Shown here: piece after piece, positions 22,572-44,733 of the stretch
Numbering within the stretch: the first letter of the stretch is position 1
Layout: every line of letters begins with the position of its first letter
Source: an uncultured Bdellovibrio sp.
Lineage (GTDB): Bacteria > Bdellovibrionota > Bdellovibrionia > Bdellovibrionales > Bdellovibrionaceae
Direction of reading: 5' to 3'
Assembly: GCA_963932905.1 (NCBI GenBank)
Contig: CAWVRN010000013.1
Location: 32,001-96,000, forward strand
Length of the DNA stretch: 64,000 bases
The notes under the pieces: generated by a model
The model's input: only the letters and a program-made list of their open reading frames with translations
Database searches by the model: none
What the model was told of the DNA's origin: nothing
Made by a program: the position numbers and the translations under genes

Positions 22572-22640
22572 TGAATCAGTTTCAAAGAAAAACTACAATT
22601 TGACATCGATAAAACCAAGTCGACCAGGTGCGGCGGGTAA

Positions 22641-25512: not shown

Positions 25513-25540
25513 GCCAAGAATCCAACTAAACTCTGCACGA

Positions 25541-26158: not shown

Positions 26159-26286
26159 TAGTGTCCTGGCCTGACTATAAAATCAATTTTGTCCTAACTT
26201 GACGCAAGATGCGAAAATAGTGCCGATAGCGTGTTTTACTTTATATAATTTCTATTTCTTGTTCGAATAAATGTTAGATTAAATTT

Positions 26287-27607: not shown

Positions 27608-27672
27608 AACTTCTTTGTAGAAATACCGAAGTAAGTATTAATATAAATATAGATAGGAGCATCGGAGGAAGC

Positions 27673-28281
27673 TTGGAAATTCAAACTCAGTTTATCAATC
27701 CGTTTCCAGTTGAGTTACTTGTACGAGATTTCGAAATGCCTCCAAACTGGAATGAGAATTTGGATTTATTTATTCGCACCCAAGTTTTCAAAAACCAACA
27801 AATATATAATCCGAACAATCCTAGCATGTTTGATGAAATCAATATCTTTGCAAATGAATATGTTGATAAAAGTGAAGAACTGCAAATCCTCTATAAAATG
27901 TTTTACGACGGCTTTAAAGATCTTGCCCTACATAGTGACCCGAACATTTTACCTGAATCTATTTCTAAAATGGATTTTAAGGGAAAAGTCCCTTTCATGA
28001 AGTCTGGCGACTTTAAGAAAGTTCACAATCATGTTAAGGCGGATGCCTACGGAATTTTTTATTTGAATGAAATCGCACCCAAGTCTGGTGGCCAACTGAT
28101 CTTGCACCATCCTGTTTTTCACAATCAAGTATATTATACCGCTCCTGCAGAGTATCCTATTCCTCATAAAAAAAATCGCCTCATTGTTGGTCCTAGCTAT
28201 GTATGGCACGAAGTGAGCTATTATTCGGGTAAAACGGAACGGCAGGTTATATCTGCTGACTGCAACCTATTTTGGACATAA
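27673..28281 (+). CDS. 2OG-Fe(II) oxygenase-like protein
   Basis: HNH, FYLN, GGQL, PSYVWHEV and RQVIS motifs; GGAGG RBS before a TTG start. Confidence 0.8.
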   Translation: MEIQTQFINPFPVELLVRDFEMPPNWNENLDLFIRTQVFKNQQIYNPNNPSMFDEINIFANEYVDKSEELQILYKMFYDGFKDLALHSDPNILPESISKMDFKGKVPFMKSGDFKKVHNHVKADAYGIFYLNEIAPKSGGQLILHHPVFHNQVYYTAPAEYPIPHKKNRLIVGPSYVWHEVSYYSGKTERQVISADCNLFWT

Positions 28282-28293
28282 AATTTTACGCGA

Positions 28294-28845
28294 GTGAGTA
28301 TCACAATGATTACAAAAAAATATATTGGCGCCGGTGCCTATGAAGTTCAAGGTTTGGGTAATGAAATTCTTTTTCCCATTCAAAGCCTCATACCAGGGGA
28401 TGAAATTAAATTCGAACGCGAAAACGATCGCCTAATTACGGCTGCAGTTAGCCACTTACCTAGCTTATTGGGACTTTTTATCTTAAATTCTGATTACGCG
28501 CAGACCAACGTTGACCATAATCAACTTACCCGAGCCTGGGCCTGGGAGTGGCATAGTGACTCGGTAAATAACCCTCAAGTAGATTGTAAAGTAATACTCT
28601 ACTTCGTCAGTGAGGACCTTACGGAAGAAACTGGAAATCGAATTTGCTTTAGAAAAAAAACAGAAAATAATGAATACACTTACGATATAAAAAATAACTC
28701 ATTGATCGTCCAACGTTCAGATCCACACGGAGTGTATCAACACAAAAGGGAACCAAGTCGAAAACCTATCAAAAGCAGAATTATTTTGTCAATGAATTGC
28801 CTGGGCTTCGATACTTTTTTAAAAAGTGTCCCCGATGCCATATAG
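28294..28845 (+). CDS. 2OG-Fe(II) oxygenase-like protein
   Basis: WEWHSD (HxD), VILYF, distal YQH and RIILS. Confidence 0.6.
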   Translation: MSITMITKKYIGAGAYEVQGLGNEILFPIQSLIPGDEIKFERENDRLITAAVSHLPSLLGLFILNSDYAQTNVDHNQLTRAWAWEWHSDSVNNPQVDCKVILYFVSEDLTEETGNRICFRKKTENNEYTYDIKNNSLIVQRSDPHGVYQHKREPSRKPIKSRIILSMNCLGFDTFLKSVPDAI

Positions 28846-29726: not shown

Positions 29727-30646
29727 AAAAGCTATTTTTTGTATGTTTTTCGGTTGTTATAATGATACTTCTTATCTGGACATTAAGTCCAAACCCTAGC
29801 AATTTGGTTATAACGCAGCAACAGGTAAAGGAACTTTCACCTAACCAACCACCTCAGGTTGACCATGTCAGGTTTCACAATATTATCTTAACTGAGAAAA
29901 ATGAGTGCGGGCAAACCCGAGAAAGCACTATTAGGGTATTTGATTTAGTATTTTTTGCTCCTCTGGAATTGACTAGGGACAAATTGAGAATCATCGTCAC
30001 AGAAGAGGTATCGGGCAACCAGCAAGAGATTTTTTTTGATGGAAACTCATTTTTGTATAAAAAATTAAATGCCAATTCCGATGTCCAAGACTTTGGAGTT
30101 CCTGAAAAATGCATAAGCCGCGATCCGTGTCCATTTTTTGTCAAAGTAAAACCCGAATATTGGAAAAATTTGAAAAGGGAAGTTCGGTTTTCCGTGAATA
30201 TATTTAACTCAAACAACCAATCCGAACCTGCACTGGTAAAAAAATATGACACAGAAGAGAATCAATTTTTAACTTCTTTTGCCGCCCCTCGAAACGAAAT
30301 CAGTGTTTTGTCTTCATTTGATCCAAAGACAAAGACAGTTTACGCTTATTTACCTAAAACCCCCGTCATTGACCAATTGAATAAAAGTACTGAGCTGTAT
30401 TTGGTCATACAGACAAAGAACAAAGTAGAGCAAAATTTTCTAGATAAATTTGAGTTCGATGTAAACCTTTTTGGACTAGAAAAGCGCATACGTGGAGACA
30501 ATTTTGAATACAAGACTAAGATAAATTCATCAGACCCTGCTTACCTCAATACAAGCTTTTATATGATTAGAAAAAACTTGTCCGAGGCCCACAGCGTAAT
30601 TTCTATAAACAAATCTGATCCATTTTTCAATTGTTCACAACAGTAG
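29723..30646 (+). CDS. Membrane-anchored hypothetical protein (family B, divergent)
   Basis: ATGA overlap; N-terminal TM helix; KNECG and terminal FFNC motifs. Confidence 0.65.
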   Translation: MKKLFFVCFSVVIMILLIWTLSPNPSNLVITQQQVKELSPNQPPQVDHVRFHNIILTEKNECGQTRESTIRVFDLVFFAPLELTRDKLRIIVTEEVSGNQQEIFFDGNSFLYKKLNANSDVQDFGVPEKCISRDPCPFFVKVKPEYWKNLKREVRFSVNIFNSNNQSEPALVKKYDTEENQFLTSFAAPRNEISVLSSFDPKTKTVYAYLPKTPVIDQLNKSTELYLVIQTKNKVEQNFLDKFEFDVNLFGLEKRIRGDNFEYKTKINSSDPAYLNTSFYMIRKNLSEAHSVISINKSDPFFNCSQQ

Positions 30647-31667
30647 ATCGATCGATGTATGCAAAAGTTGCTTTAAACGGACAGTCCGCGGTGCTTGCGC
30701 GTTTTGTAAAGCTATGCTTTACAAAACAGCCCAAAGTGCATCGATTAAAATACTTACACTCTAGGCAATTGTATTTTTCCATAAAATTCATTTCCACAGC
30801 ACTGTTGTCATTTGATTCAATTACGACGTCAAATAGCGGCGATACAGATTTGTTTTGTAAAATCAAATTACCACATTTACATTCGGTTCCATCACCAAGT
30901 AAAAGTTTTGAACTACGACAAGACATCGTATTATAGGAATTTTCAATCCATTCCCTGATGGGATTTACTTTTGGAAAGTTATCTACAAGGTATTTAAAAA
31001 ATACAACCAAATCATCATCATTTGGCATCATTAGCTGGTAATCATCTGCCGGAGAATAATAGTCAAAATAGATATAAAAGTTTTTTTCGTACAAATATTC
31101 AAAATATCGATCGCCAGAGTTCAACATCAAACTTATAAGTGGCTTCGTAATAAGCATACTAATACAACTAATTTCGTCGGAAAAAAATTCGACGTTGCTT
31201 TTAAAAAGTTCAAAATTGCTGTGACTAAAGCGCCCCCTCGGATCATAAGATGTGACCAGGTTATATGCGATGTTATTCTTTTTAAGATCGGCGAAGAGAG
31301 CCCGTATTTGGCTCTGTCTATTATTTACTAAGTTTGAAACAAAATTGAAAACTACTTTTTTATTGTTCTTCCGAGTGAATCTATCGACTTCGTCGCAGAG
31401 GTAAAAATAGTCACTTTGCAAATTTTCGTCAAATAGGTCATCGGCAAAAATCTCGCCACCCATTATATTTATTGTAAATTCAAACCGCTCGTCTTTATCC
31501 AGCATTGCGATTAACTGTGGTACTTTATTTCTAACTTCGGCTACCCCTTTTAACGCAGAATGATCTTGCCAACAAAACTTACAGGCCAAGTTACACTTTT
31601 CAAATAGGTGCAAGGTGTACTCTTGATTGGGGCTTCGTTTGTTTTTCAAAACAAAATCGCTTATCAT
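30627..31667 (-). CDS. Radical SAM protein with SPASM/twitch-like C-terminus
   Basis: CNLACKFC, MGGE and CLECKYFNRCTLGC...CP. Confidence 0.88.
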   Translation of the reverse strand: MISDFVLKNKRSPNQEYTLHLFEKCNLACKFCWQDHSALKGVAEVRNKVPQLIAMLDKDERFEFTINIMGGEIFADDLFDENLQSDYFYLCDEVDRFTRKNNKKVVFNFVSNLVNNRQSQIRALFADLKKNNIAYNLVTSYDPRGRFSHSNFELFKSNVEFFSDEISCISMLITKPLISLMLNSGDRYFEYLYEKNFYIYFDYYSPADDYQLMMPNDDDLVVFFKYLVDNFPKVNPIREWIENSYNTMSCRSSKLLLGDGTECKCGNLILQNKSVSPLFDVVIESNDNSAVEMNFMEKYNCLECKYFNRCTLGCFVKHSFTKRASTADCPFKATFAYIDRSTVVNN

Positions 31668-32710
31668 AGTCGAACCTCAGGTTGTCTCTTTTTTACAAGA
31701 ACATTTCCGGCTTCTTTTTTATTTATTTCGATTACTTTTTTTGCTATCTCTTTCATTCCCGAACAGTGGCGTTCTATCGAGTCGTGTTGCTTCAGGTCGT
31801 GGATTGTTTTTTTACATCCGTTGCAAATATTAAACATCGGACATGTGTAACATTCAATTTTAAGTGCATTCAGTTCCGTCTGATTTAGAAGAGGTCGATG
31901 GACATTGACATCTGACATTTCCTGCTCAAAAGAAATGGGATAAAGTCGGTCATCCGCAAATGCCCCACAACTATAGTAGTCACCGGATGGCTGCAAACAT
32001 CGAATATTAGAATCGCAATTGCGATTCTGAGGGCACGTTTGATGACGTCCTGAAAATCTTTGCATCATCTGTTTAGTGTTGTATTCCCAGGGCCATAGTT
32101 CCATTTCATATATTTGCACATATATCTTATAGATTTTGGACAAAATATAGGGCTTTATTTGATCCCCGCTGGCCATCGCATAGTTCAGCTTACATTCGAC
32201 ACCCATCTGCTTAGCTAGTTCGACATTTTTAATTGCCGTGATATCGTTCTCATCGGTGATCACGGAAATGAAATCGGGTCGATAACCTACCTCATTTAAA
32301 AATAAGTCACTGACTCCCCAAAACATGGGTTCAGTATAAACTAAATCTTTTGTTATTCTGCGAGTGTCACCGAAATTAAAAGAGGTTGTAACTGAAACAC
32401 GATGATTTTTAAATAACGGAGCCCACCTAGACGGACTATTTTTAAAAGCCCACAGATTTGAGGTAAAACTTATTGAAGTCGACATTTTTTCCTGATCTAG
32501 AAATTCGATTATTTTCCAATAATAACCAGGATCTACCATCAGTGGATCTCCGCCATTAACAATTATGCTTCCCGTTTCTGGAAAACGTTTTAAAAAAGAA
32601 AATATCGTTTCTAAATCTAAGATTTTAGATTTTTCATCTGTAATATTTGTACTTGAGCAGAAAGTACATTTAAAATTGCATCGCTCAGTTGGTTTTATTA
32701 TTAATTCCAT
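31664..32710 (-). CDS. Radical SAM/SPASM protein
   Basis: IKPTERCNFKCTFC, NGGDPL, GDYYSC and CYTCPMFNICNGC. Confidence 0.9.
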   Translation of the reverse strand: MELIIKPTERCNFKCTFCSSTNITDEKSKILDLETIFSFLKRFPETGSIIVNGGDPLMVDPGYYWKIIEFLDQEKMSTSISFTSNLWAFKNSPSRWAPLFKNHRVSVTTSFNFGDTRRITKDLVYTEPMFWGVSDLFLNEVGYRPDFISVITDENDITAIKNVELAKQMGVECKLNYAMASGDQIKPYILSKIYKIYVQIYEMELWPWEYNTKQMMQRFSGRHQTCPQNRNCDSNIRCLQPSGDYYSCGAFADDRLYPISFEQEMSDVNVHRPLLNQTELNALKIECYTCPMFNICNGCKKTIHDLKQHDSIERHCSGMKEIAKKVIEINKKEAGNVLVKKRQPEVRL

Positions 32711-33804
32711 CAGTAGTTAAAGTTTCCGTATTTGTAAAAGTTGTCATTTACCGTTTTAAATCCTGCCCTAGGAGCCAGACAATCTTTATAGTCTAGTTTT
32801 TCCATCAAATAATGCATTCCCCGCCCCACACAGTTTGAGGCGTATTCGCACCCAGCACATTCTGTGGTTTTTTCAATGTATTTCAATGAATCAACCATCA
32901 TGCGATTCTCGAACTCTACAATTGTATTATAGTTCCATACGGTGTCAGCTCCCAAACCGGCATCGTCTTCATACACAATTAAAGGCTCTCCCAAAAATAC
33001 GGTAGAATATAAATTTCCATTTTTATAGACGTAATCTTTATCGTAGCCCTCATACCTTTTCCCGTAATTAAAGTTCACCTCTTGGCTCTTTTCTTCAATT
33101 ACCGCTTTTTCAAACAGCAGATTAAGATACTTGATTAGGTGGAGAACCTTTTTTTTATTCTCAGGTATCGTCAGAGGCAATCTACCTTCCGATATGACCA
33201 AATCAAGATGACCTTCTGGCCAAATTTGGTTAAAATACTTCGAAAAATCATGAAATTGATAAAGTGGATCATGCTCCTTCTGATATTCATGTAAATTTAC
33301 TATGTTGTACACGTGACCAAACTCACAGTTTGGAATAATACTTTCGAAGAGTTTAATTTTTTCTTTGATACCATTTAAATACTTTTCGTTCCTTAAGTGT
33401 TTGGGCTCTAACGGAACAGTCCATTTAACACGACGGCCAGATAAAATAGGCTTTAATTTATTCGCCCAGTATCTAACGACTTCATGATCTGCTAAAAAGG
33501 TAGAATTTAATACCAGGTTACGAAAATAATCCATCATAGGAATAATGTCTTTATTAAGAATTTCATCGGTATTGCGAGCACTCATAAAATCCGTGGCGCC
33601 AACAGCCAAATTTATCAAGACATGATTGTTATCCTTAAGATCCTGAAACAAATCCATAAGTCGTCTGAAATCATTTCCAATAAATCCGTTAGCGTCGTCT
33701 TTGTTGATACGACATCCTGTACACTTCCACTTACAACCGCTCAAAACCTCTAAATTTATATCAACTAAAAAGTGGGATTGGTAATTAGCCAAGATTTCCT
33801 CCAA
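32710..33804 (-). CDS. Divergent radical SAM-like protein
   Basis: CKWKCTGC and C-terminal CAGCEYASNC...CLAP; lacks the GGE motif. Confidence 0.72.
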   Translation of the reverse strand: MEEILANYQSHFLVDINLEVLSGCKWKCTGCRINKDDANGFIGNDFRRLMDLFQDLKDNNHVLINLAVGATDFMSARNTDEILNKDIIPMMDYFRNLVLNSTFLADHEVVRYWANKLKPILSGRRVKWTVPLEPKHLRNEKYLNGIKEKIKLFESIIPNCEFGHVYNIVNLHEYQKEHDPLYQFHDFSKYFNQIWPEGHLDLVISEGRLPLTIPENKKKVLHLIKYLNLLFEKAVIEEKSQEVNFNYGKRYEGYDKDYVYKNGNLYSTVFLGEPLIVYEDDAGLGADTVWNYNTIVEFENRMMVDSLKYIEKTTECAGCEYASNCVGRGMHYLMEKLDYKDCLAPRAGFKTVNDNFYKYGNFNY

Positions 33805-34855
33805 ACGCTCGATTAACTCGCGCTGAATGATAAAATTTTAATTCTTCCGGATTTTTAAAAAAAGTCGTCGTCGCAAAATCTATAAAATAGTTGTTCAAAG
33901 TTAGACCAAATTTAGATTGCCCTATGAAATTTCTAATTCGGCTATTTAAATCTAAATCTAAAATAGCGTCTATAGAAATATCGAAATTTAACTTTAACCA
34001 TTCAAAGGCAACGTCCAAAAGTGGATTCGGCAAGTACTGTCTTACCTTCGACAACTCCCGCTGAATATCTTTGATATCATAGTGAGACTCTAAAAAATTA
34101 TTTCGATTGACCGCCACCTGTCCATCCATCATAAACTTTAAAAAATTTTCGCTGTAACGTTCTGCATGTTTAGTCATCTCGTCTATGAAAGAGTAACTGG
34201 ACAGCAGTTCAGCTCGCAAATCTAAAAGTAATAAAACTTGTGTTTCTTGAAGATCTTTCGTCAGTTGCTTCTTTGTTCCTTCCGGGAGTGGCATTTTTGC
34301 AGAGATATAATCAACATAGGCATTCTCAAAAGGCAGAATATGCCAATAGTCAAACCGATCTCCGAAAATACCTCTGTTGGATTTTTTTATTGTTTTAGGC
34401 CGCGATGCCTGAACAAATTTATCTATTTTATGAGCCAAATCCTTAGTCAGATTCCCGGCTGCCGTTCGGCTCCTTAGCAGTCTATATTCATATCTATCTA
34501 GTACCATTTGAAATAAAAAGTTGGCCCGAGACTGATCGATATCCGGCATCATGCTAAACACCCAGTCACTGTATACAGCTATAAAATTCTCTACATCACA
34601 GTAGATGATCGTTTGACCTTCAGATTTAATCAAATTACTCCAAAATACACTTAATCCATCAGAGTTTGAACTAACAAAATCAATATAAGAATCTTGGCTG
34701 TAAACGACGTTACCAAAGATTAGTCCTGTTAAATTCTTTTCCTCTTCTGAAAAAACACTCCAGCGATTCCCCGCCTCACCAAAAAACACCAAGTTTTGAC
34801 TGTTTCGTATATCAAAATCAGGAGCCAGAAAAACGTTACCGACTAAGTTAATCAT
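33785..34855 (-). CDS. Hypothetical protein (island paralog family A)
   Basis: MINLVGNVFL...IIYCD...LNNYFIDF; overlaps both neighbours. Confidence 0.7.
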   Translation of the reverse strand: MINLVGNVFLAPDFDIRNSQNLVFFGEAGNRWSVFSEEEKNLTGLIFGNVVYSQDSYIDFVSSNSDGLSVFWSNLIKSEGQTIIYCDVENFIAVYSDWVFSMMPDIDQSRANFLFQMVLDRYEYRLLRSRTAAGNLTKDLAHKIDKFVQASRPKTIKKSNRGIFGDRFDYWHILPFENAYVDYISAKMPLPEGTKKQLTKDLQETQVLLLLDLRAELLSSYSFIDEMTKHAERYSENFLKFMMDGQVAVNRNNFLESHYDIKDIQRELSKVRQYLPNPLLDVAFEWLKLNFDISIDAILDLDLNSRIRNFIGQSKFGLTLNNYFIDFATTTFFKNPEELKFYHSARVNRAFGGNLG

Positions 34856-35930
34856 TCAGCGCCAACTCTGTTAATTCAAAGCCGATATTTTGCAACTCGG
34901 TAGCGGCGTTTTCCATTAAAAACAATAAATATGGATTCAAGTACTCGCGAACTCTTAACGATTTTAGAATTTTAGCTGAAGCTACTTTTTCTTTACTTTT
35001 GGTTAGAATTTCTAAAGTAAAAAATGGAGATGATCGATCAAGAAACACATTTTGAAAAATTGGCGCATATTCATTGTACTGCAATTCCAAGGCTTGCAGA
35101 TGGATTTTACTGTTATCAAATTCAAATAGCAGCTTATAAATTTCAGGGGCGAGCCTTGCAAGTTCATTACGTCGATTTTTCGACCAAGAAATCTGATCGA
35201 TTCCAATCATTTTCTCAATTCTATAATAAGAATCTATCAAAGGCAGCACAACGTCCTCTTCAAATTCTGTCAGACTTCCTACATTCAAAGTATTGAGTGT
35301 ATTCAAAAGCATACCTTGCGAAGGTTTAAAATCACCATTTGTATAGTAATTTACAAAAAACAAATCTAAATTAACTTGATCATACAGTTGCGTCTTGATC
35401 TTCTGATTTATTCTCCAAGCAAATGTATTTTCCCATATGAGTTTAATAAAACCAGCCGAAACGACCTGATGAATTTGATCGTGCAATTGTCCGCTAAAAC
35501 TATGGACAGATATTGACGATTGATTGCCGGCGTTTCCATCAATAAACTTTATCTTTTTTAAAAAAATGTTGATCAAAAAATCAAATGCTTCAAATCCCAT
35601 GTTAGGCAAAATTGTCTTAAACAATTTTGCTTTTAAATAAACCATATTTTCAATATCGCTGAAAATAAAAAGCAAATTGGGTTCTGAAGATTCAATCATC
35701 CATTCAACAAACGCGCTGTCGTCATTTTTGAATTTTTCTTCGACAAACGACCACAGCTGAGAACAACCAAATCGCTGCTTCGAATTGTCTAATTTTAGAC
35801 CGTTTAAGCCTCTGGAAGGGTCAAATCCACGTGCATAGGATTCGTATTCTTTAAAAATTCCTAAATGATTCGCGTTTACATCGAATTCAACAAAATTTTT
35901 TAAAAACACCTTACCAAACAATTGATACAT
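34848..35930 (-). CDS. Hypothetical protein (island paralog family A)
   Basis: MYQLFGKVFL...FIFSD...LNPYLLFL; operon-coupled. Confidence 0.7.
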   Translation of the reverse strand: MYQLFGKVFLKNFVEFDVNANHLGIFKEYESYARGFDPSRGLNGLKLDNSKQRFGCSQLWSFVEEKFKNDDSAFVEWMIESSEPNLLFIFSDIENMVYLKAKLFKTILPNMGFEAFDFLINIFLKKIKFIDGNAGNQSSISVHSFSGQLHDQIHQVVSAGFIKLIWENTFAWRINQKIKTQLYDQVNLDLFFVNYYTNGDFKPSQGMLLNTLNTLNVGSLTEFEEDVVLPLIDSYYRIEKMIGIDQISWSKNRRNELARLAPEIYKLLFEFDNSKIHLQALELQYNEYAPIFQNVFLDRSSPFFTLEILTKSKEKVASAKILKSLRVREYLNPYLLFLMENAATELQNIGFELTELALND

Positions 35931-35933
35931 AAA

Positions 35934-36710
35934 TTAGCTGACCGTAATGCGATCAAGCTCTTTACCTACCAGGTCTATTTGCTGTTCAGTGAACGCCTTT
36001 TTCAAAACTGCGCCTACGACAGCGTAGAGTTCGGGGCTTGATTGCATGGTTTCAGCAAACAAATTTTTTCCGTTATAAAAAAACTCTTCAAATTGAGGTT
36101 TAAAATAAAAAGCGGTCGTAGTTGAAAAAGTTCCGAAATAATTTATATAAAACATAGGCATTTTCAATAAATTCACGAAAGTAAAACCGGTGAATTCCAT
36201 ATCGTCAACAACGGAAAAATGAGCTTCCGGAGGTGAACCTAAATCTCGAAATTCTTTGGAGCAGGTGTATATAAAGGTAGGAATACTATCAAGAAGCACG
36301 ATAAGCCGAAGCATATTATTCATTCGATCTGCGTCTTCCAAATAGTCCCGAACTCGCTCTCTAGAGATTAATGAGTAGGTGTCTAAAATCTGTTGTTCCG
36401 CTTCAGACAACTCGATCCCTTTAATTTCAGCCAGAATTCGAACAATCGAAAATTTTATATTCACCAAATCTATTGTCGATTTAAACGTGACATAGCTATC
36501 AATTAAAGAGAAAAAATCATCTTCAATACTATTTGATTTTTCAAAATAAACATTCGCCACATTAATGTTGCTTAAATAAATCAACAGAGCGCGGTCTTTG
36601 ATTTGACATGCTTTATAATCACCAATGACTTTTAAATCAGGATTGGCGATAACTAATTTCAAGTCATCCATACTAAGCGGAAACTTAGTTCGTAATTCCA
36701 TTGTACTCAT
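35934..36710 (-). CDS. Hypothetical protein translationally coupled to the candidate substrate
   Basis: ATGA overlap with 36707-37354; 258 aa. Confidence 0.7.
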   Translation of the reverse strand: MSTMELRTKFPLSMDDLKLVIANPDLKVIGDYKACQIKDRALLIYLSNINVANVYFEKSNSIEDDFFSLIDSYVTFKSTIDLVNIKFSIVRILAEIKGIELSEAEQQILDTYSLISRERVRDYLEDADRMNNMLRLIVLLDSIPTFIYTCSKEFRDLGSPPEAHFSVVDDMEFTGFTFVNLLKMPMFYINYFGTFSTTTAFYFKPQFEEFFYNGKNLFAETMQSSPELYAVVGAVLKKAFTEQQIDLVGKELDRITVS

Positions 36711-37354
36711 CGGCGCCCCCTAGCGCCATGACAGCTGCCATGGCACGAAGAATGGCACCACGTCTCTACAAAAACTATCGGATTAGCGGCTCTATCATTT
36801 GCTAAATGCAAAGCTAGAGCATCGATGAAAGCAATAATCGGTTGAGATTCCACCCACGAACCAACCCCAGGAAAAGCAGGCCCGATCCCGGCATAATTGA
36901 CGACATCGAAATTCAAATGAATTTGCCCGGCCATAGGCCCATATTGATTAACCATAGTTCCAAAGTTATTATAATTTTTTTGAATTGTATAATTGCGATA
37001 ACGACTAAGCGTTGAGAATACAGTTCTAATAAAACCCGCCACACTGGCTACCGAAACTCGCTGAGCCACATCAACGCCAGCAGCCTGAATTTCCGCGCTC
37101 GTCACCGCAGTGCGAACGGTTTGACCTGCGCCTAACTGACTAGATCCATCTCCCGTCGCCACACCATTTCTAGTTGTGCTGCTATAACTACCAGAAATGG
37201 GCCTATTGTTTACAAAAGGATTGTTATTAGGATCACCGCCGGGACTTCCGCTGTGAGTTTTGCTTGCTGCATTTATAGCCGCCACAGTTATATTAAGTTG
37301 ATCGCGAATTTGATCTCTAAATACCGCATCAATTCTGGTTCCCCGAGCCCCCAC
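36707..37354 (-). CDS. Candidate radical SAM substrate/structural protein with C-terminal (CHxx)3-RGRR tail
   Basis: Gly/Ala/Ser/Asn-rich body; all three Cys lie in the tail WCHSSCHGSCHGARGRR; AGGAG RBS before GTG; lies among radical SAM genes. Confidence 0.7.
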   Translation of the reverse strand: MGARGTRIDAVFRDQIRDQLNITVAAINAASKTHSGSPGGDPNNNPFVNNRPISGSYSSTTRNGVATGDGSSQLGAGQTVRTAVTSAEIQAAGVDVAQRVSVASVAGFIRTVFSTLSRYRNYTIQKNYNNFGTMVNQYGPMAGQIHLNFDVVNYAGIGPAFPGVGSWVESQPIIAFIDALALHLANDRAANPIVFVETWCHSSCHGSCHGARGRR

Positions 37355-37363
37355 GCCAGTCTC

Positions 37364-38521
37364 CTATTCTTTGCCTACAAATTTATTCAGCATTTTTCTA
37401 TATAGGTTGATATCATTTTTTTCTTTTAATTCTTGCATTAACGTCTTGGGCGAGGCACACAGATCCCCCTGCCACGCTAATTGATGACAATCGCCATTAC
37501 ATACATCAAATACGTCACAGGAATAACATATCGGATTTCTTTGAACCTCACACAATATATTTTTCGAACGTCCCGGCGACGACAATAACTCAGGAATAGG
37601 CATAGATAGATGAGCATATGGCTGAGTTGCGGCTGAATTCGGACACCCACCAATGCTGCCGTCCGCGTTCAAAGTGAAAATTTTTTGTTCACAACCCCGA
37701 CATCTACACCCCGTATGGGCTCGATTAACCAAACTAGTTAAAATTGAATTAAAAAACAAATTTGTAAATTTTGTATAAGACTCTAGCTTTACCGTTGCCC
37801 GCCAAAGTTTCAAAAACCAATCGTCCAATTCTTTATTTGTTGGAATGACACCCTGATTAACAAGCGCATTACCATTTGGGGTAATTCTTTCTAGATGCAA
37901 ATACTGAACACCCAAGTCAGCAAACCATTTTAAAAAATCTTCGACATCCATTTGGATAACATCTTTGGACAAACTGATCATAACAGTGACTTCGTGGCCA
38001 TCCTGAAGAAGCGTATTAACATTTTTTCGCCAAAGAGTCTCTTGATGTTCTGACTGAAAACGAATGCCTCTATCCCAAGAGGTCGCAATACCTTGGGAAA
38101 ATGCCGTTTTCATAAACTGTCGTTTTTCATCATCAAGGTTATAAACCAAATTCGTGGTAGCCGACCACCAAACGTTTGGCCACAAATTGCGACAGCTATT
38201 CCATACTTTATACATAGAAGAAATTGGTGCCAAAAATGGCTCTCCTCCATGAAAGGCCACATGACCATTTTTCAAGTGTGGAACAACTTGGTGAAATCTA
38301 TGAAACCAATCAACCACAGCATCTGGGTCAAAAAAAATCTTTTTTCCGTTTTTGCCACTAGTGAAACAATGCGAACAGTTTAGCTGGCAGGTTTCCGTTG
38401 TCTTTAGATAGACCATCAAATCAGAGACCCTTAAAAACGAAGACAGGTTAAGGCCACGCTTAATTTGCGGATCAACAGAACGGTCATTAAAACTTGAGGA
38501 CGTATCTTTTAATTCTATCAT
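37364..38521 (-). CDS. Radical SAM/SPASM peptide- or protein-maturase-like enzyme
   Basis: LKTTETCQLNCSHC, FHGGEPFL, DGSIGGCP and CYSCDVFDVCNGDC...C. Confidence 0.92.
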   Translation of the reverse strand: MIELKDTSSSFNDRSVDPQIKRGLNLSSFLRVSDLMVYLKTTETCQLNCSHCFTSGKNGKKIFFDPDAVVDWFHRFHQVVPHLKNGHVAFHGGEPFLAPISSMYKVWNSCRNLWPNVWWSATTNLVYNLDDEKRQFMKTAFSQGIATSWDRGIRFQSEHQETLWRKNVNTLLQDGHEVTVMISLSKDVIQMDVEDFLKWFADLGVQYLHLERITPNGNALVNQGVIPTNKELDDWFLKLWRATVKLESYTKFTNLFFNSILTSLVNRAHTGCRCRGCEQKIFTLNADGSIGGCPNSAATQPYAHLSMPIPELLSSPGRSKNILCEVQRNPICYSCDVFDVCNGDCHQLAWQGDLCASPKTLMQELKEKNDINLYRKMLNKFVGKE

Positions 38522-38609
38522 CAGCTCTAATCATCGCTGTATGGGCCAAGATGTCAATCCGTTAGTCGCCCTTTCTGCTGCGCAAAGGGACCAGCATCAC
38601 ATAATATGA

Positions 38610-39578
38610 TTAGTTAGCATTTAATCGGCCTTCCAGAAGATTTATTTTTTTTATCAACTCTTGCCGTTTAATATAAACTTGCTTGTGATACTCCCATAGT
38701 ACCGGAATGACTGCTGAATAATTTAATGTAGAAATGCCAGTGGGATTTGACACGCCCGCATAGGGTAAATCCTTTAGAATCTCTTGAGCAATAAAGCCTA
38801 GATGCTGTCCTTTATAGTTTTTGAGCTTGTACCTGTAACCATGAATGGATTCAAAGGTCTGGCCACTGACCGCGATTTTTTTGATGTCAGTTTTCAGAGA
38901 CACGTCGGAAGCATTACCTAGGTGATTCACCCGCAAATTAGGTGCTGTGGCTGCCGGAAAAGCTTCATCAACCAGGACTTCTCCACCGATTTCCACATTG
39001 CCTTCGAAGGTTATGTCTCCTTGTTTAGTTTCAGCTCCATTTATGCGAATAAAGGAATTGCTTAGTACCATCGCGGTCGCACTACCACATGTTGTTACCC
39101 TGCCTAAGCCATCGATCGTGCCCTCAAGAGGTATATGCAGAGTCATTTGTCTGACTCCCTGGCCCTTATTGTATCCATACGTGACAGCGATATTAAACGT
39201 GACATTTGGCGCCGCAACAATAAGATCGGACACCTGCGCACCTATTACGTCCACCGTTCCGTTATTCAAGTCATTTAATGGAAAGGTCAACACCACACCA
39301 TTAGCACCATCACGGATAGTGGGAATATTTTGACCGTTAGCAAGAGCGCCCGCTGTCGCGTTAAACGTATTCAAACAACCCGTTTGTTGATTAAAAAGAC
39401 TGTCCATATTTAAATGCAAGGGCGCTATAAATCTTTCCGATCTAATTAACTGAAGCTCTTCCATAGTTGAAATGTAGAGCTGAGTTGTAGAAAAAATAAT
39501 TCCGGCCAAAAGAGCAACACCCACAAGCAGTTCTGTGAGCGAAATACCTCGCTGATTTCCAACAAATTTAATTTTCAA
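38610..39578 (-). CDS. Type IV prepilin-like protein fused to a C-terminal Peptidase S74-like intramolecular chaperone
   Basis: QRG|ISLTELLVG prepilin motif (TTG start at 39578); SDVSLK...GFIAQEI...LNYSAVIP plus coiled coil. Confidence 0.8.
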   Translation of the reverse strand: MKIKFVGNQRGISLTELLVGVALLAGIIFSTTQLYISTMEELQLIRSERFIAPLHLNMDSLFNQQTGCLNTFNATAGALANGQNIPTIRDGANGVVLTFPLNDLNNGTVDVIGAQVSDLIVAAPNVTFNIAVTYGYNKGQGVRQMTLHIPLEGTIDGLGRVTTCGSATAMVLSNSFIRINGAETKQGDITFEGNVEIGGEVLVDEAFPAATAPNLRVNHLGNASDVSLKTDIKKIAVSGQTFESIHGYRYKLKNYKGQHLGFIAQEILKDLPYAGVSNPTGISTLNYSAVIPVLWEYHKQVYIKRQELIKKINLLEGRLNAN

Positions 39579-39579
39579 T

Positions 39580-40191
39580 TTATTTAACTTTAACCCAGTG
39601 GCGGCCATTAACATCTACCTTCTTTTTTTCCGTTCCAAATATCGTATCGAATTCGGGTTTTTTATAAATAGCCAATAAGCGCTCAGGAAATTTTAACTTT
39701 TCTTCAGTCGTCATTTCACTCAAAATGCCCTCTTCATTGTTTGTCAGCGGTGTACCTGGCTCATATGTATTGTCTACATAGGCCAACACCCAACCACTGA
39801 CAGCGATTGGCACCTGCCGCTGACTCGGATAACGCCCTTGCCCGACAGCAAATCCAAAAGTATCCGAAGCAATTCCTATCGCACTTTTTTGACATCGTTG
39901 ATTGCATATTTTGGCGCCGTCAAATGTGTCATAATAACATTTTCCAAACACGATTTCATCACATACCAGCTGAAAATCTGCTATATCATTCCAGACAGCT
40001 CCCCAAACTTTTTCAGCGGCAAACTCTCCAGAAGCAGCACCACCAAGCGCTGTAGTGACAACTAAATCCACTCCCCCAGCAGCCACAGTTACGACTCCAG
40101 AGCCATCAATGTTACAGGTTTTAATAGTGGCCGCGGATTGAGCTTGCTGACCTATGAAAAGAGTGTGTATCAGTTGGGAAAGTTTTTGCAT
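39580..40191 (-). CDS. Phage tail-like protein with a peptidase G2-like autocleavage/chaperone domain
   Basis: KVWGAVWNDIADF...IGIASDTFGF...VPIAVSGWVLAY...GTPL...WVKVK. Confidence 0.55.
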   Translation of the reverse strand: MQKLSQLIHTLFIGQQAQSAATIKTCNIDGSGVVTVAAGGVDLVVTTALGGAASGEFAAEKVWGAVWNDIADFQLVCDEIVFGKCYYDTFDGAKICNQRCQKSAIGIASDTFGFAVGQGRYPSQRQVPIAVSGWVLAYVDNTYEPGTPLTNNEEGILSEMTTEEKLKFPERLLAIYKKPEFDTIFGTEKKKVDVNGRHWVKVK

Positions 40192-40200
40192 GCTGATCTC

Positions 40201-41241
40201 CTAGTTACTTTTAATCCTTAGTTTGGTTTCTATTTTGTCTAATCGTTTTTCTAACTTCCTATTTTCCTTTGACATATTTTTATAAGACTCATGAAGAATA
40301 GGTACAAATCCCGAATAATTGACCGTCTTTTTACCATCAGTTTTTCGAGCAGAAACAAGCTGAGGCAGAACTTTTTCAACATCCTGAGCAATGAAGCCAT
40401 AGTCTCGCCGTCCATCTTGTTTCCATGAAAACTCTTTCCCTTCAATTAAAGAAAAAACTTCATCGAAATTTACTAAAAGAGGTTTGATGTCCGATTTAAA
40501 ACGCCTATCCGACAAAGTGTAAACTCCACCATAGGATCGTATCGATCCAGACTGTGCTGGATTTCCACCACCACCAGCCCAAGCAACCACGTTCATATTT
40601 CCTTCTATTGTCAAACTACCCTGCTTGGCTGTGCTATCATAACGATCACGCTGCACATAAGCGTTCGGATCATATCCAAAACCTGCCGATGTCCCCGCAG
40701 TACAACGATGGTAAGTATTCTGATCTAGAGCATTGTAATCTGGTACCAAGCGCTGACCTACTGCCGTCGGCACCGTAGTTCTAATTGTAATCACTCGATC
40801 CATGTTTCGAGTCGTCCCGCCTGTTCCGATTGGCACGCGATAGCGAATATTTAAGTCAAAACTACCGGTGTAGGGCAATGGCGCACCCGCGGCCGGATTC
40901 TGCAGAAAATTAGTCGCACGCATCCGAGTAATCGAAATGTTTTGATAGTAAGGCCCACCAGCAGTCGCATACAGTACCGTGTTAAATGAGTTTCTTATGC
41001 TCGCAATATTTGTAAACAGTGCCGCACGATTAATCCCGGTAAAGGTATTGTAGCATCCATTAGGGTTGGTTAGGGCCAACAATATGTGAGCATGAAGTTC
41101 TTCAACATTTAAAGTTAACCGAGTTTCCAAGAAATGCTTCTGAGTCGCCATTAGTAATGCTGAAATTAGCAAAGTCACTAAGGCAAGCCCACCGACATAT
41201 ACAACAAACTCTATCAAGGTAAACCCACGCCTATTCATCAC
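40201..41241 (-). CDS. Type IV prepilin-like protein fused to a Peptidase S74-like chaperone
   Basis: RRG|FTLIEFVV; SDRRFKSDIKPL...FSWK...GFIAQDVEKVLPQLV...VNYSG plus coiled coil. Confidence 0.85.
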   Translation of the reverse strand: MMNRRGFTLIEFVVYVGGLALVTLLISALLMATQKHFLETRLTLNVEELHAHILLALTNPNGCYNTFTGINRAALFTNIASIRNSFNTVLYATAGGPYYQNISITRMRATNFLQNPAAGAPLPYTGSFDLNIRYRVPIGTGGTTRNMDRVITIRTTVPTAVGQRLVPDYNALDQNTYHRCTAGTSAGFGYDPNAYVQRDRYDSTAKQGSLTIEGNMNVVAWAGGGGNPAQSGSIRSYGGVYTLSDRRFKSDIKPLLVNFDEVFSLIEGKEFSWKQDGRRDYGFIAQDVEKVLPQLVSARKTDGKKTVNYSGFVPILHESYKNMSKENRKLEKRLDKIETKLRIKSN

Positions 41242-42352
41242 GTCCTCCGCTGGTCTTACCAGTGACAGGACCCAGTTTTCGGTCAGCTAAAGATTCGAGC
41301 TGCTGAATTTTTCTTTCTAACTTAATATTTTGCTGATCGATTGATTTAGTGGCCTCAAGTAAGATTGGCAATAGGGCCTGATAATCAACACGTTTAATTC
41401 CGGTGCCTTCATCAGACGAAACCACTTCTGGAAAAATAGATTCAACTTCCTGGGCGACAAAACCAATGTCTTTACGCTGTCCCTCTTTCCATTGAAATGA
41501 GTAGCCATTCAACGTCATTAGGTCTTTTGGTTTAATCACTAAAGGCTGCATATTTTGCTTAAGTTTTTTATCGGATATTGTAAAAACCCCACCCTGGACG
41601 CCTAAATCACCACCGACACTTAGGTTTCCTCCGGTCATTCTAAATACAAATCCTTGAGGTTCGTCAGCAGTGTTTCCCCTTGCATCTGTAGTCATTTTAG
41701 ATTTGGTGTCAATTCCTGTCTTAGAAAGATAATTGGCAGGATTAAAGCCAAACGAGGTGCCGTTTTCGGGAGCAGCATGACATCGCTCGGGCTGCTTCAC
41801 AACTGCGCTTCCTGCGGCCCAGGTGTTGGCCGGATTCGTTTCCGTTCGAACAATAAATCGACGAACTTTACTTATTGTCGAAGACGGCGAAACACGAACA
41901 AGATAATTTACTGTGACCCGAAAAAATCCTGTGAAAGGAGCCGGAACACCACCGCCAGCAGTAAATGTATCCGCAGTCATCGACGTAATCTGAATACTTC
42001 TATTGTAGAATGTATTAAGCACATAAACAGGGACTGGTACCGCAGGAGCTTGTGCGCCACTCATAATTTGATTAAAAGCAACCTGTCCTGGAGCAATAAC
42101 CATCCCGCTAAACGTATTGAAACAAGCATGCCTGTTCGACAAAGTAAAAACAATTTGAGCATGTAAATCGTCCACAAGAATATTACCACGAGTCTCGAAA
42201 AAAAAAGCTCGCGTAGATAAAATCGAATTGTTAATCGCTACGGAAACCACACCAAGAATTACCAAAGTAATCAAAATTTGAATAATGGAAAAACCCTTTG
42301 AATTGGATCTTTCAATAACTTTAAGAAGAATAAATTTAGACTTTTGTTTCAT
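41231..42352 (-). CDS. Type IV prepilin-like protein (Gln at +5) fused to a Peptidase S74-like chaperone
   Basis: SKG|FSIIQILITL; SDKKLKQNMQPL...FQWK...GFVAQEVESIFPEVV...VDYQAL plus coiled coil. Confidence 0.85.
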   Translation of the reverse strand: MKQKSKFILLKVIERSNSKGFSIIQILITLVILGVVSVAINNSILSTRAFFFETRGNILVDDLHAQIVFTLSNRHACFNTFSGMVIAPGQVAFNQIMSGAQAPAVPVPVYVLNTFYNRSIQITSMTADTFTAGGGVPAPFTGFFRVTVNYLVRVSPSSTISKVRRFIVRTETNPANTWAAGSAVVKQPERCHAAPENGTSFGFNPANYLSKTGIDTKSKMTTDARGNTADEPQGFVFRMTGGNLSVGGDLGVQGGVFTISDKKLKQNMQPLVIKPKDLMTLNGYSFQWKEGQRKDIGFVAQEVESIFPEVVSSDEGTGIKRVDYQALLPILLEATKSIDQQNIKLERKIQQLESLADRKLGPVTGKTSGGRDE

Positions 42353-42403: not shown

Positions 42404-42751
42404 ATGGAAAGAAGATTTTTTTTTAAATTCCTATCCGGCCTTACGATGTTTTCTGGTCTAGCAAGTTTGAAACAAGATTCATCTCATATTGACCCGTCTC
42501 CAAACGAGAAAAGACACCAAGTTTTTTTAAAGCCAGGGTCGAAGTATTACCTACCTGAAAATCCCAACCACATGGACTTCATAGTTTTTAGACTAACTGA
42601 TAGTTTTCAAACTAACCCGACTCAAGTCCATGCACATAAGCATAAACTTATCGGCCAGAACGAACCCTTGTTAGTAGACTACGATACAGATTTTGGTCTT
42701 AGGTTTTTAGGCGACCAAACTGGATGGGTACTTGTTCGACTTGAGTCTTGA
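42404..42751 (+). CDS. Small protein with a twin-arginine-like signal and a phage baseplate/tail-connector-like domain
   Basis: MERRFFFK followed by a hydrophobic stretch; LPENP...D...F.TNP..V....LIG...L.F.....GW pattern. Confidence 0.5.
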   Translation: MERRFFFKFLSGLTMFSGLASLKQDSSHIDPSPNEKRHQVFLKPGSKYYLPENPNHMDFIVFRLTDSFQTNPTQVHAHKHKLIGQNEPLLVDYDTDFGLRFLGDQTGWVLVRLES

Positions 42752-42757
42752 TACCCC

Positions 42758-43879
42758 ATGAGTTCTTTCCTAAAAAGAAAATTTATTTTTCTTCTATTTT
42801 TTTTGATTTCGGTAGTTTTCGTCTTTTACTCAATAAAATTTAAAAAAAGCACTTCGGTTTCATCTCGACTGAATAGAACAGTTGTGGTGTCATACAACGA
42901 TTTAAACGAATCGTTACTCAACTCTAAATTGATTCAGATTATATCTTTAGGCGTGAAGGAAATTTACGTTCGGATTGAAAGCCAAATTCACATTACCTGC
43001 AGTTTTAAGGTCGAGGATCCGTGCCGCGTTGACAAATCACAAGTAAATTCTGTTGCTGCCTGGCAGAGTTTTTTAAAAGCGCTCGGTGAAAAAGGAATCA
43101 CCGCAAACTTAGTCTATGATCTGAATATCAATAATTTTTCATATAAGATGCACTCCTACAAGTCTGAAAGGGGCCGAATTGAAGGTCCAAGTAGCGTCGG
43201 CAATCTTAAAAGTAGATTCATTTTTCAAAATACTAAATTTATCGAAATTATTAAAAGTGATTTTAATATAATTTCGGGGCTAACAGATTTCAAAAGGGTT
43301 TTTTTTGGATCAGATCTGGATTTGTTTTTTTCTCAATTGCCAGATATCACTATAATCCAAAGCGAAGTGCAGGGATTCTGGAAGCTCATTAAGCAATTAA
43401 AAGAGATAAATCCAAACAAGTCATTATCTTCGTGTTTTAACTACGAACACTTGAAGGGTTCACTTTTCTGGGGCGCTATGGACAAAACTCAAATGCGCAA
43501 GCAAGACGAATTTTGTTTTTCCTCGTTTCCAACTCAAATTAAATGGGCTAAAAAATTTGGTATTGAAAAACAATTTGTTCTTCTTGATTCCCCAAAGGAC
43601 GATTTCACCTCCGACTACTATGACAGTCTAGTAACAATTGGCCTAACAGAAAAACCTATTCATATTGTCGGATTTGCCTACCCTTTGCTACCAGAAGAAA
43701 AGGACTTGCAGGCAAAAGTCTTGAATACAGTTTTGTATGCGCTTCCACGATATATAGCTTCAGTAGCCTGGGAAAACCGGCTTTCCCTTAACGATCAAAA
43801 AAATCTAGCCGAGTCTATGAGTATTTGGCATGAACAGGATTTTAATTTGAATAGTTCTGGTAGTATGTTTTTCGAATGA
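42758..43879 (+). CDS. Membrane-anchored hypothetical protein, possibly a degenerate glycoside-hydrolase-like barrel
   Basis: N-terminal TM helix; FFGSD, FSSFP and GFAYP strand motifs. Confidence 0.4.
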   Translation: MSSFLKRKFIFLLFFLISVVFVFYSIKFKKSTSVSSRLNRTVVVSYNDLNESLLNSKLIQIISLGVKEIYVRIESQIHITCSFKVEDPCRVDKSQVNSVAAWQSFLKALGEKGITANLVYDLNINNFSYKMHSYKSERGRIEGPSSVGNLKSRFIFQNTKFIEIIKSDFNIISGLTDFKRVFFGSDLDLFFSQLPDITIIQSEVQGFWKLIKQLKEINPNKSLSSCFNYEHLKGSLFWGAMDKTQMRKQDEFCFSSFPTQIKWAKKFGIEKQFVLLDSPKDDFTSDYYDSLVTIGLTEKPIHIVGFAYPLLPEEKDLQAKVLNTVLYALPRYIASVAWENRLSLNDQKNLAESMSIWHEQDFNLNSSGSMFFE

Positions 43880-43890: not shown

Positions 43891-44733
43891 TTATTCACAT
43901 CGCTGGAAAAAATCGGTCGAGTCGGTTTTGTCTAACACCACGATCTTTGATTCAAATGCCAAATTTTTACGTGAAACATGGACCATAAAACTTAGGTAGG
44001 TGAACGGCTCTACCAATTTTTTTTTCATCGGAAACTCACGGCTTCGCCTACTAAGCCATTCATGATTAAGTTGGATTCGCTCAGTTTCGTCCGAATATGA
44101 AATCTGCTTTAAAGAATTTCGCCAAGAAAACACAAACTCAACTTCAAAACCTTCTTGCAAGACAGATTTTATTTTTTCCTGATTTACGTAGGCCACAACA
44201 GCGTTCGTTTTTTTATTCACCTTAAGATCCAGATCCCCAAATAGATATTTACCAGCATTCGTGTGGAAGTCATTGCGAACAGAAATATTTTTTTCTTGAA
44301 ACACCGATACTGAATTTTCTTGTCTAGATATCTGTATTGAAATGTCCCAAATTTTAAGAGGAAACAGTGCCCCTAAATCAAAAACAAAAAAACCAAGCCT
44401 GCATTTTTTTAACATCGCTACGCAATTTGGCATTTCATATTCATGGTGCCCATTAGGTCCAAACAACTTGGGATAATAGAAAGTCTTTCCATTATAAATA
44501 ATTCTCTGGTTAAACTGACTATACTTTTCGGCGAAATTTATTTCTAGATTTTTGGTTAATTCAGGTGTTGGCAAGTCGGTTTCCAACCTTAATGCATTTG
44601 GATAATACACTTGAACATCACCACATTGATTCTTTCGAATAAAAACGTCGTGTTGAAAAAAAAAGTCGAGTTTGCTTTCGGCGAACAAGTTTACTGACAA
44701 CAAAAGTAGCCAAAAAACTAAATTGAAATTCAT
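43891..44733 (-). CDS. Secreted hypothetical protein (island paralog family B)
   Basis: Signal peptide; near-colinear with 28857-29726. Confidence 0.7.
   Translation of the reverse strand: MNFNLVFWLLLLSVNLFAESKLDFFFQHDVFIRKNQCGDVQVYYPNALRLETDLPTPELTKNLEINFAEKYSQFNQRIIYNGKTFYYPKLFGPNGHHEYEMPNCVAMLKKCRLGFFVFDLGALFPLKIWDISIQISRQENSVSVFQEKNISVRNDFHTNAGKYLFGDLDLKVNKKTNAVVAYVNQEKIKSVLQEGFEVEFVFSWRNSLKQISYSDETERIQLNHEWLSRRSREFPMKKKLVEPFTYLSFMVHVSRKNLAFESKIVVLDKTDSTDFFQRCE

Follow-up and report, generated by a model that had tools for sequence, protein, structure and literature searches.

Type IVb tip pilins such as CofB and TcpB, which form a trimer at the pilus tip, and the PilV shufflon adhesins of R64 combine a pilin head with C-terminal beta-rich domains; we know of no radical S-adenosylmethionine (rSAM) genes associated with them. 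Maturation of a whole protein by rSAM enzymes is, to our knowledge, known in few cases: HXS, quinohaemoprotein amine dehydrogenase and sulfatases. According to the accessible text of Li et al. 2026 (PMC13128918), HxsB and HxsC of the anti-phage system HXS mature a protein with HxS repeats, the modification amounting to +8 Da on SHRSS. Phage-like trimeric fibres have been described in the predator Bdellovibrio bacteriovorus (MAT fibres; Caulton et al. 2024, PMC10769870), and papers on jumbo phages, as far as their accessible text goes, give a cassette of rSAM enzymes as annotations only, assign them no function and do not mention the tail protein encoded among them. Here, we describe a locus of an uncultured Bdellovibrio sp., located in a window of 64,000 nucleotides (the whole stretch of DNA that was analysed), in which twelve genes, g1 to g12, bring together relatives of such parts. 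Three proteins with a pilin-like N-terminus and an S74 chaperone domain (g1, g2, g4) and a G2-like protein (g3) make up the core of a fibre module; g5 and g7 to g12 belong to a cassette of rSAM and accessory proteins that surrounds g6, a protein with a C-terminal Cys/His tail (CH-tail protein). We give a probability of about 0.5 to the reading that this is one island of two phage-tail-derived parts travelling together in Bdellovibrionota, namely the fibres and a cassette that matures g6.

Linkage of fibre and rSAM genes in bacteria and phages

The twelve open reading frames (ORFs) lie on the minus strand at 30627-42352. Neighbours overlap by 1-35 bp or are spaced by 3-9 bp, apart from one 88-bp gap between g4 and g5 that is the largest spacing within the block (Table 1), as described in the original prediction, which had been made from the letters of the window alone. 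That prediction also took fibre and enzyme genes to belong to one system, and they do occur together in other genomes. Within the genus, the g5 cassette is carried by five of the nine other species, all five of which also have the six-gene fibre module (the divergent pair 42404/42758, two pilin-S74 genes, g3 and a third pilin-S74 gene). This module is found in six of the nine, as are full-length homologues of g2. A search of 51 further genomes from the family and order detected no g5 cassette, nor was g3 found in 20 genomes from other genera of the family. Furthermore, g3 occurs in eight of 200 other genomes, belonging to two other families. Several Cx3Cx2C genes lie beside g3 in all eight loci, and five of them have pilin-S74 genes together with recognisable cassette homologues, CH-tail proteins included.

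We compared 37 g3 loci from several Bdellovibrionota families, which comprise the congeners and at least four of these eight loci. Pilin-S74 genes are present in 31 of them, an rSAM-type gene of any kind in 32 and both in 28. Within the available DNA, BLAST homologues of the rSAMs of the window were found in 29 and a CH-tail protein in ten. Judged from gene content, fibres and enzymes are genuinely linked. One locus (L144, CAXPDR010000038.1) combines g3, pilin-S74 and cassette in a metagenome-assembled genome labelled Flavobacteriaceae, a label that may reflect a binning error or a transfer; the other 36 are from Bdellovibrionota. One genome (G003) that had been a candidate for a fibre module devoid of rSAMs was rejected as such, Pfam showing two rSAMs 4-8 kb upstream; at a second seeming exception, a Halobacteriovorax locus, Pfam likewise recognised rSAMs.

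Such adjacency would also be seen if two unrelated modules shared a variable island merely as a common insertion hot spot, which we consider rather unlikely. The pilin-S74 and g3 genes would then produce a pilus or surface fibre, and the rSAM genes would be a phage cassette acquired independently, with a substrate and purpose of its own. The orders and orientations of fibre and rSAM genes do differ among the 37 loci: within the genus, wherever the contigs permit a comparison, the two parts occupy one region, but they are adjacent here and lie 5-7 kb apart in three congeners (G002, G005, G009), with intervening genes including one for a B12-rSAM. In the closest relative (G008), a cassette-type oxygenase gene lies 19 bp after the fibre module. 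In the window, the 88-bp gap holds a promoter-like site, from a scan that as a whole was not above chance (32 sites vs 36 expected), and GC content is 0.40-0.44 over 36-42 kb vs 0.34-0.36 across most of the island. However, co-localisation recurs in distant families despite the rearranged layouts. In the Halobacteriovorax locus, even a very divergent set of six Pfam-supported rSAMs directly follows g3. Moreover, the two genes at 43891-45683 belong to the cassette elsewhere (a homologue adjoins g12 in G008, and both genes are inside the cassettes of L119 and L127), so that the fibre module of the window is flanked on both sides by cassette genes. In some phages, too, S74 fibres are found near the cassette. 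The Halobacteriovorax locus also encodes a 183-aa protein (aa, amino acids; L132:12964-13515) with 12 Cys, 8 His and a C-terminal CxC/CxxxC run, which may represent an alternative type of substrate.

The cassette has close counterparts in phages. Searches by tblastn recovered g5 in 15 phage records and g7 in 14, all from jumbo phages: Atu_ph07, Sinorhizobium Phosso, Ralstonia RSF1/RSL2 and relatives, Burkholderia FLC6/FLC8/S13 and one Pseudomonas phage. The order g5-g6-g7-g10-g12-g11, continued by the rSAM gene at 26287 and the phrog_20737 gene, is matched in Atu_ph07 (gp172-165), in RSF1 (ORF069-085) and in the five congeners. In addition, a tail-pattern scan of the uncultured viral contigs of IMG/VR yielded 60 CH-tail loci, 59 of which encode a g5-like rSAM. 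Homologues of g11 are present in 42 of these loci, of g12 in 36, of the 26287-type rSAM in 30, of g7 and of phrog_20737 in 27 each and of the B12-binding rSAM in 17. No g3 homologue was found in any of the 60, nor did g3 match the phage collection in tblastn. Since phages carry g6 and its enzymes without g3 or pilin heads, the cassette does not need the fibre module, a point that also speaks for unrelated modules.

The surroundings of the viral cassettes are those of tail genes. In all four viral contigs annotated with PHROGs (L056, L075, L085, L101), a phrog_358 protein of 1,500-2,100 aa followed by a tail-fibre-like protein is encoded upstream of the cassette. A small phrog_8014/phrog_4992 protein stands between the fibre-like protein and the first rSAM in three of them, a baseplate-wedge gene lies upstream in two, and in one an S74 tail fibre gene and a fibre-assembly-like gene are located just downstream. 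In Atu_ph07 (L001), the 13-kb gene of gp180, annotated as virion structural, lies about 5 kb upstream of the cassette, with several small genes between. A phage ancestry of the rSAM block, as originally proposed, is supported by its synteny with the jumbo-phage cassettes and by the recurrence of the same tail protein beside g5-type rSAMs in viral contigs; the original statement that rSAM-plus-CHxxCH blocks occur near tail genes of large phages proved correct.

It is very improbable that the island is a decaying prophage remnant with no present function, as might be imagined from a low-GC island between core genes in which many genes match phage families only. All 12 ORFs are intact and tightly packed, and no capsid, terminase or integrase gene was seen by Pfam and PHROGs in 19-52 kb. 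Furthermore, 7 of the 10 species in the genus retain the fibre module, at the same place in the chromosome, and it persists in other families too; g3 has at least 394 homologues, with identities of 50-98%.

The CH-tail protein and its putative maturation

The rSAM substrate is likely to be g6 rather than the pilins, because g6 is the sole ever-present non-enzyme and has an invariant short tail. The C-terminal pattern C-H-x-x-C-H-x-S-C-H-x-x-R-x-R-R is conserved without exception in eight of eight compared sequences, two of them from phages. The body outside this tail is only 25-50% identical among ten aligned homologues (an alignment that excludes two phage proteins). Both g6 and g2 evolve too fast for a word-index search, which gave five matches for g6 and 13 for g2; a profile search with g6 found 564 representative proteins at E<=1e-3. 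The g6 body is predicted to fold as a domain (predicted TM-score, pTM, 0.72). A fold search of the PDB with this model gave nothing at E<=0.001, and in BFVD it matched only uncharacterised phage proteins, that of Atu_ph07 included. As g6 had no match by tblastn in the phage collection, its phage relatives were identified via synteny, tail pattern and fold.

The phage homologue is a virion protein. According to the mass spectrometry in Supplementary Table S5 of the Atu_ph07 study (Attai et al. 2018, PMC6102473), Gp170 of purified virions has a mass of 31.89 kDa and is represented by 8 unique peptides (35% coverage); it was detected in gel bands 1-9 with peak abundance in band 1, the top one. 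The products gp165-169, 171 and 172 are absent from the virion protein list of that supplement. The protein translated from the Atu_ph07 locus has a computed mass of 31.89 kDa, equal to the published one, and the identity of this protein with Gp170 is therefore secure. The presence in the virion of the substrate without its enzymes fits enzymes that act on a structural protein, and the top-band signal hints at a form of high mass that is stable in sodium dodecyl sulphate. The matured homologue is probably a tail or baseplate component of the phage virion. The virion proteomics of phages RP12 and RP31 was considered as a second data point and set aside, since no CH-tail homologue was found in these phages.

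The rSAM cassette is borne out by motifs and by PHROGs. Cx3Cx2C can be read in g5, g10, g11 and g12, the SPASM-type CX2CX5CX3C in g5 and g12, and three of these four proteins match phrog_1802 at 1e-62 to 2e-39. They are nevertheless divergent from curated models. With Pfam Radical_SAM (PF04055) only g11 is over the cut-off (33.3 vs 29.5 bits), g5 and g12 scoring 22.8 and 17.3 bits, and the NCBIfam SPASM domain stays under its cut-off (19.5 vs 27). Identity to the Atu_ph07 genes reaches 55% for g5 (gp171), 54% for g11 and 39% for g12, g11 being 54-55% identical to its phage homologues. Among the accessory genes, g7 is located directly 3' of the CH-tail gene in phages and bacteria, and in several viral loci it starts 3 bp past the CH-tail match. 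A search of the ESM Atlas with g7 gave no usable match, and three runs of complex prediction for g7 with g6 scored 0.00, 0.43 and 0.00. The two proteins g8 and g9, which the original prediction called paralogous, do resemble each other, but weakly (22% identity over 138 aa, E 0.004).

Enzymes of this kind could also produce a peptide. As in ribosomally synthesised and post-translationally modified peptides (RiPPs), g6 would be a precursor with a long leader whose last 16 residues are cross-linked and released as a small metal-binding or antibiotic peptide, serving predation or, in the case of phages, the manipulation of their host. The conserved C-terminal core and variable body of g6 would suit such a precursor, and oxygenases and a B12-rSAM are typical tailoring enzymes. 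The rSAMs moreover resemble the peptide maturases DarE, DynA, PapB, XyeB and HxsC, all far under cut-offs; g5, for instance, matches DarE, DynA and PapB weakly, and the named equivalog models (DarE, DynA, PapB, CXXX-repeat and anaerobic sulfatase maturase) gave 16-48 bits against cut-offs of 340-650. We nonetheless regard a released peptide as unlikely: Pfam, NCBIfam and PHROGs recognised no protease or exporter in the block, the g6 body is a predicted domain, gp170 is retained in the virion and the phage cassette sits amid baseplate and fibre genes.

A role in defence or counter-defence akin to HXS was weighed as well. The matured tail of g6, basic and rich in His and Ser, would then bind nucleic acid in the periplasm, either blocking foreign DNA or protecting and guiding phage DNA. 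The tail does contain CHxS units and ends in RxRR, and the substrate of HXS (PMC13128918, accessible text) is likewise a whole protein, its HxS repeats containing many basic residues. In addition, g11 matches HxsC at 1.6e-8, and the island's B12-binding rSAM hits PDC-M51A, a candidate defence family of PADLOC, at 3.5e-18. Yet scores with the HxsB and HxsC models amount to 15-34 bits, where the cut-offs are 268-370 (at best 33.8 vs 267.9 for HxsC and 19.8 vs 370 for HxsB), NCBIfam found no match to HxsA or HxsD in the proteins of the locus, and apart from PDC-M51A PADLOC gave on the island only weak viperin-core matches to rSAMs. The locus is not a member of HXS. Besides, g6 has no recognisable signal peptide or peptidoglycan-binding domain, and its family is mainly viral and located beside tail genes, which makes a defence role of this type distinctly unlikely.

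Pilin-headed fibres, proposed mechanism and setting of the island

The S74 domain of the three pilin-headed proteins, named in the original prediction, is confirmed by Pfam: Peptidase_S74 (PF13884, cut-off 22) scores 45.1 bits in g1 (1.2e-11), 49.7 in g2 (4.5e-13) and 40.2 in g4 (4.1e-10). The SDxxxK motif is present in g1, g2 and g4 and in 49 of 49 homologous ORFs from 31 loci, and g1 matches the C-termini of PHROG tail fibres. Their prepilin motif, also predicted, is recognisable by eye, while the N_methyl model (PF07963, gathering score 21.2) remains below its cut-off in g1 (16.9 bits, 0.0048) and g2 (16.0 bits) and has no Pfam match in g4. The translations of g2 (RRG|FTLIEFVV...) and g4 (QRG|ISLTELLV...) have the features of a class III signal, with G at -1, a hydrophobic residue at +1, E at +5 and a hydrophobic stretch. 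The strict class III pattern occurs in 32 of the 49 homologous ORFs, and by eye several of the remaining 17 come close to it. A language model places g2 near N_methyl, Shufflon_N and CofB pilin clusters, among others (scores 0.82-0.86), which we take as a lead only. The genome has a fourth S74 domain in a 731-aa ORF elsewhere (contig C31:43146-43310), which may encode a fibre of the MAT type known from B. bacteriovorus.

The label G2-like for g3 draws some support from fold and motif and none from curated sequence models, g3 having no match in Pfam (E<=0.01, Peptidase_G2 included), NCBIfam or PHROGs. Its AlphaFold2 model (predicted local distance difference test 79.8) finds the C-terminal autochaperone of phi29 gp12, 3gqh_A, as the top solved structure, with Z 11.1 and a root-mean-square deviation of 3.3 Å over 110 aa at 20% identity (model 69-203 vs chain 692-854). 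Trimeric capsid cement proteins, which have the same beta-tulip fold, match the model at Z 7-10.8. The g3 family profile matched only gp12 in the PDB (E 0.032 and 0.25). Moreover, the invariant motif W67-N68-D69-x-A-D72-F at the domain junction of g3 aligns with W-S-D-F-A-E-Y at the domain boundary of gp12, where gp12 presumably cleaves itself at S691/D692. The source-named homologues of g3 are all hypothetical proteins of Bdellovibrionota without a Pfam domain.

These observations suggest the following mechanism. In the pilin proteins, the S74 chaperones would drive the formation of trimers and then cleave themselves at SDxxxK, and the chaperone of g3 would do so at W-N|D-x-A-D-F. The prepilin-type N-terminus would be cut by a prepilin peptidase (Peptidase_A24), for which the genome has a single gene, and would then hold the trimer within a type IV pilus-like filament or at its tip; trimers anchored by prepilin helices are the most likely form of the pilin-headed S74 proteins. 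Meanwhile, the cassette, which comprises four rSAM/SPASM-type enzymes (g5 and g10 to g12), two more rSAMs, two 2-oxoglutarate (2OG)-Fe(II) oxygenases, g7 and phrog_20737, would act in the cytoplasm on g6, whose CHxxCHxSCHxxRxRR tail is the putative modification site. If ranthipeptide, cyclophane and HXS enzymes are taken as a guide, the most likely products on this tail are Cys-derived thioether and/or His-Ser-type cross-links. In the bacterium, matured g6 would have the same structural or adhesive role as in phages, beside the pilin-anchored fibres and plausibly in contact with prey or surfaces. From these elements we infer, as did the original prediction, a chemically modified pilus tip.

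A number of points weigh against such an island. Neither g3 nor g6 has a recognisable signal peptide, whereas the pilins would be inserted in the membrane, and how the two would physically meet is unexplained. As said, phages have g6 and the enzymes with neither g3 nor pilin heads, and the promoter-like site of the 88-bp gap, from a scan at chance level overall, lies between the two parts. The 37 loci were selected by g3 and include close relatives, so that their counts are not independent, and their ORFs come from a crude script. Five of them have no rSAM in the available DNA (for one of these, L112, the cassette is carried by a separate short contig of its genome, G008) and six have no pilin-S74 gene. 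In g1, the residue at +5 is Q, not E, in addition to the N_methyl scores below cut-off. Finally, the top-band position of gp170 comes from one gel lane of one study, and aggregation could explain it.

A broader version of the proposal is more tentative: many myoviruses would cross-link their CH-tail protein by rSAMs and oxygenases, and Bdellovibrionota would have captured the module whole and set S74 fibres on pilin heads, giving a trimeric and chemically reinforced adhesin of the pilus tip that seizes prey. If true, the CH-tail protein would be the first radical-SAM-matured virion protein, found from jumbo to marine T4-like phages.

The whole island extends over about 20.7-46.9 kb, wider than the region first noted, between a histidine kinase gene on one side and BamE/SecA on the other. 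Its genes at 20694-28281 follow the order of the cassette as found in relatives and RSF1/Atu_ph07, with homologues in 17-30 of the 60 viral loci. Genome-wide, 23 Radical_SAM matches were counted in 4.55 Mb; only 19 are spread over the rest of the genome vs four inside the island, so that their clustering in the island exceeds chance. The GC content over g1-g6 (36000-42000) resembles that of the flanking core genome, unlike the rest of 20000-47000; the difference may be due to unequal residence time or to the Gly/Ala-rich products of g1-g6. Of the divergent pair that stands beside the fibre module in relatives, the 115-aa protein (42404-42751) has a Tat-like (twin-arginine-like) N-terminus, ERRFFFKF, and a homologue near g3 in 18 of the 37 g3 loci; its 373-aa partner has an N-terminal hydrophobic segment. 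A 183-aa protein encoded at 28294-28845 was compared with the cupin-like protein that phages encode upstream of g5 and rejected as its equivalent, the two having no significant similarity.

Table 1. Features of the island, with positions in the window
Feature	Coordinates	Strand	Description	Basis
B12-binding rSAM	20694-22571	-	625 aa; edge of island	Pfam
2OG-Fe(II) oxygenase	25541-26158	-		Pfam/PHROGs
rSAM of phrog_1802	26287-27231	+		Pfam/PHROGs
phrog_20737 protein	27161-27607	+		PHROGs
2OG-Fe(II) oxygenase	27673-28281	+		Pfam/PHROGs
g12	30627-31667	-	346 aa; rSAM/SPASM-type, CNLACKFC; CLECKYFNRCTLGC	phrog_1802, 2e-39
g11	31664-32710	-	348 aa; rSAM enzyme	phrog_1802, 4e-53
g10	32710-33804	-	364 aa; divergent rSAM-type, CKWKCTGC	phrog_31457; homologues in RSF1 and relatives
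g9	33785-34855	-	no assigned family	homologue only in closest relative, G008
g8	34848-35930	-	no assigned family	homologue only in closest relative, G008
g7	35934-36710	-	258 aa; conserved accessory protein	phrog_20767, 8e-26; phage homologues
g6	36707-37354	-	215 aa; CH-tail protein, C-terminus CHSSCHGSCHGARGRR	likely rSAM substrate
g5	37364-38521	-	385 aa; rSAM/SPASM enzyme, CQLNCSHC; CYSCDVFDVCNGDC	phrog_1802, 1e-62
88-bp gap	38522-38609	-	promoter-like TTGACA-16-GATGAT at 38557-38530; no terminator-like site	scan not above chance as a whole
g4	38610-39614	-	334 aa; pilin-like N-terminus QRG|ISLTE, S74 chaperone SDVSLK	
g3	39580-40191	-	203 aa; short N-terminal piece and phi29-gp12-type (G2-like) beta-tulip autochaperone	
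g2	40201-41241	-	346 aa; pilin-like N-terminus RRG|FTLIE, S74 chaperone SDRRFK	
g1	41231-42352	-	373 aa; pilin-like N-terminus SKG|FSIIQ, head with two Cys, S74 chaperone SDKKLK	
Divergent pair	42404-43879	+	115-aa and 373-aa proteins; beside fibre module in relatives	translations
Two proteins	43891-45683	-	280 and 317 aa; travel with rSAM cassette elsewhere	

Comparison with described systems

The locus would be an undescribed variant of rSAM protein maturation; no literature on the CH-tail protein, on the function of the cassette or on a link to pilins was found in a search in which subscription journals were largely out of reach. It brings forward a family of at least 564 representative proteins with a fixed Cys/His tail, tied to 3-7 rSAMs amid phage tail genes and with one member in virions, and hence a testable case of enzymatic cross-linking as part of phage tail assembly. 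The fibres would be a new candidate for the recognition and holding of prey by predatory bacteria, and would show how in nature the receptor-binding apparatus of a phage can be joined to a type IV pilus.

The closest relatives of the cassette are those of jumbo phages (Atu_ph07 gp165-172, RSF1/RSL2 ORF069-085 and FLC6/S13), which have homologous genes in the same order and, in gp170/ORF071, a tail with the same invariant pattern as g6. They differ by a cupin-like gene upstream and by the absence of g3 and of pilin-headed proteins. As for HXS, going by the accessible text of its description, it shares with our locus rSAMs whose target would be an entire protein instead of a small peptide, modified at a short His/Ser repeat near basic residues. 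However, the repeat is here CHxS x3 at the extreme C-terminus, the enzymes are many more, and HXS provides a periplasmic host effector whereas the g6 family provides a virion component in phage.

Regarding the fibres, phi29 gp12 (MEROPS G2; PDB 3GQH, 3SUC) is the best fold match of g3 and accounts for its sole profile-PDB hits, with the common boundary motif W-[SN]-D-x-A-[ED]-[FY]; unlike gp12, g3 is free-standing, with only about 68 residues before the domain. The CofB/TcpB tip pilins and R64 PilV adhesins are built like g1, g2 and g4, a pilin head preceding C-terminal beta-rich domains, and a language model places residues 1-235 of g2 close to clusters of CofB/TcpB/PilV type (scores 0.82-0.84; no more than a lead). 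They have no S74 domain, and no sequence-level homology to g1, g2 or g4 was found. Lastly, the model strain B. bacteriovorus HD100 appears to lack pilin-headed S74 fibres linked to a cassette, given that g3 was not found in the 20 other genomes of the family. Its species makes MAT fibres, which, in the accessible text of Caulton et al. 2024 (PMC10769870), are likewise phage-like trimeric fibres of a predator with an S74 domain and SDxxxK. MAT fibres are long and have a Sec signal peptide and a conserved N-domain of 130 aa, whereas the proteins described here are 334-373 aa in length and start with a prepilin-type N-terminus.

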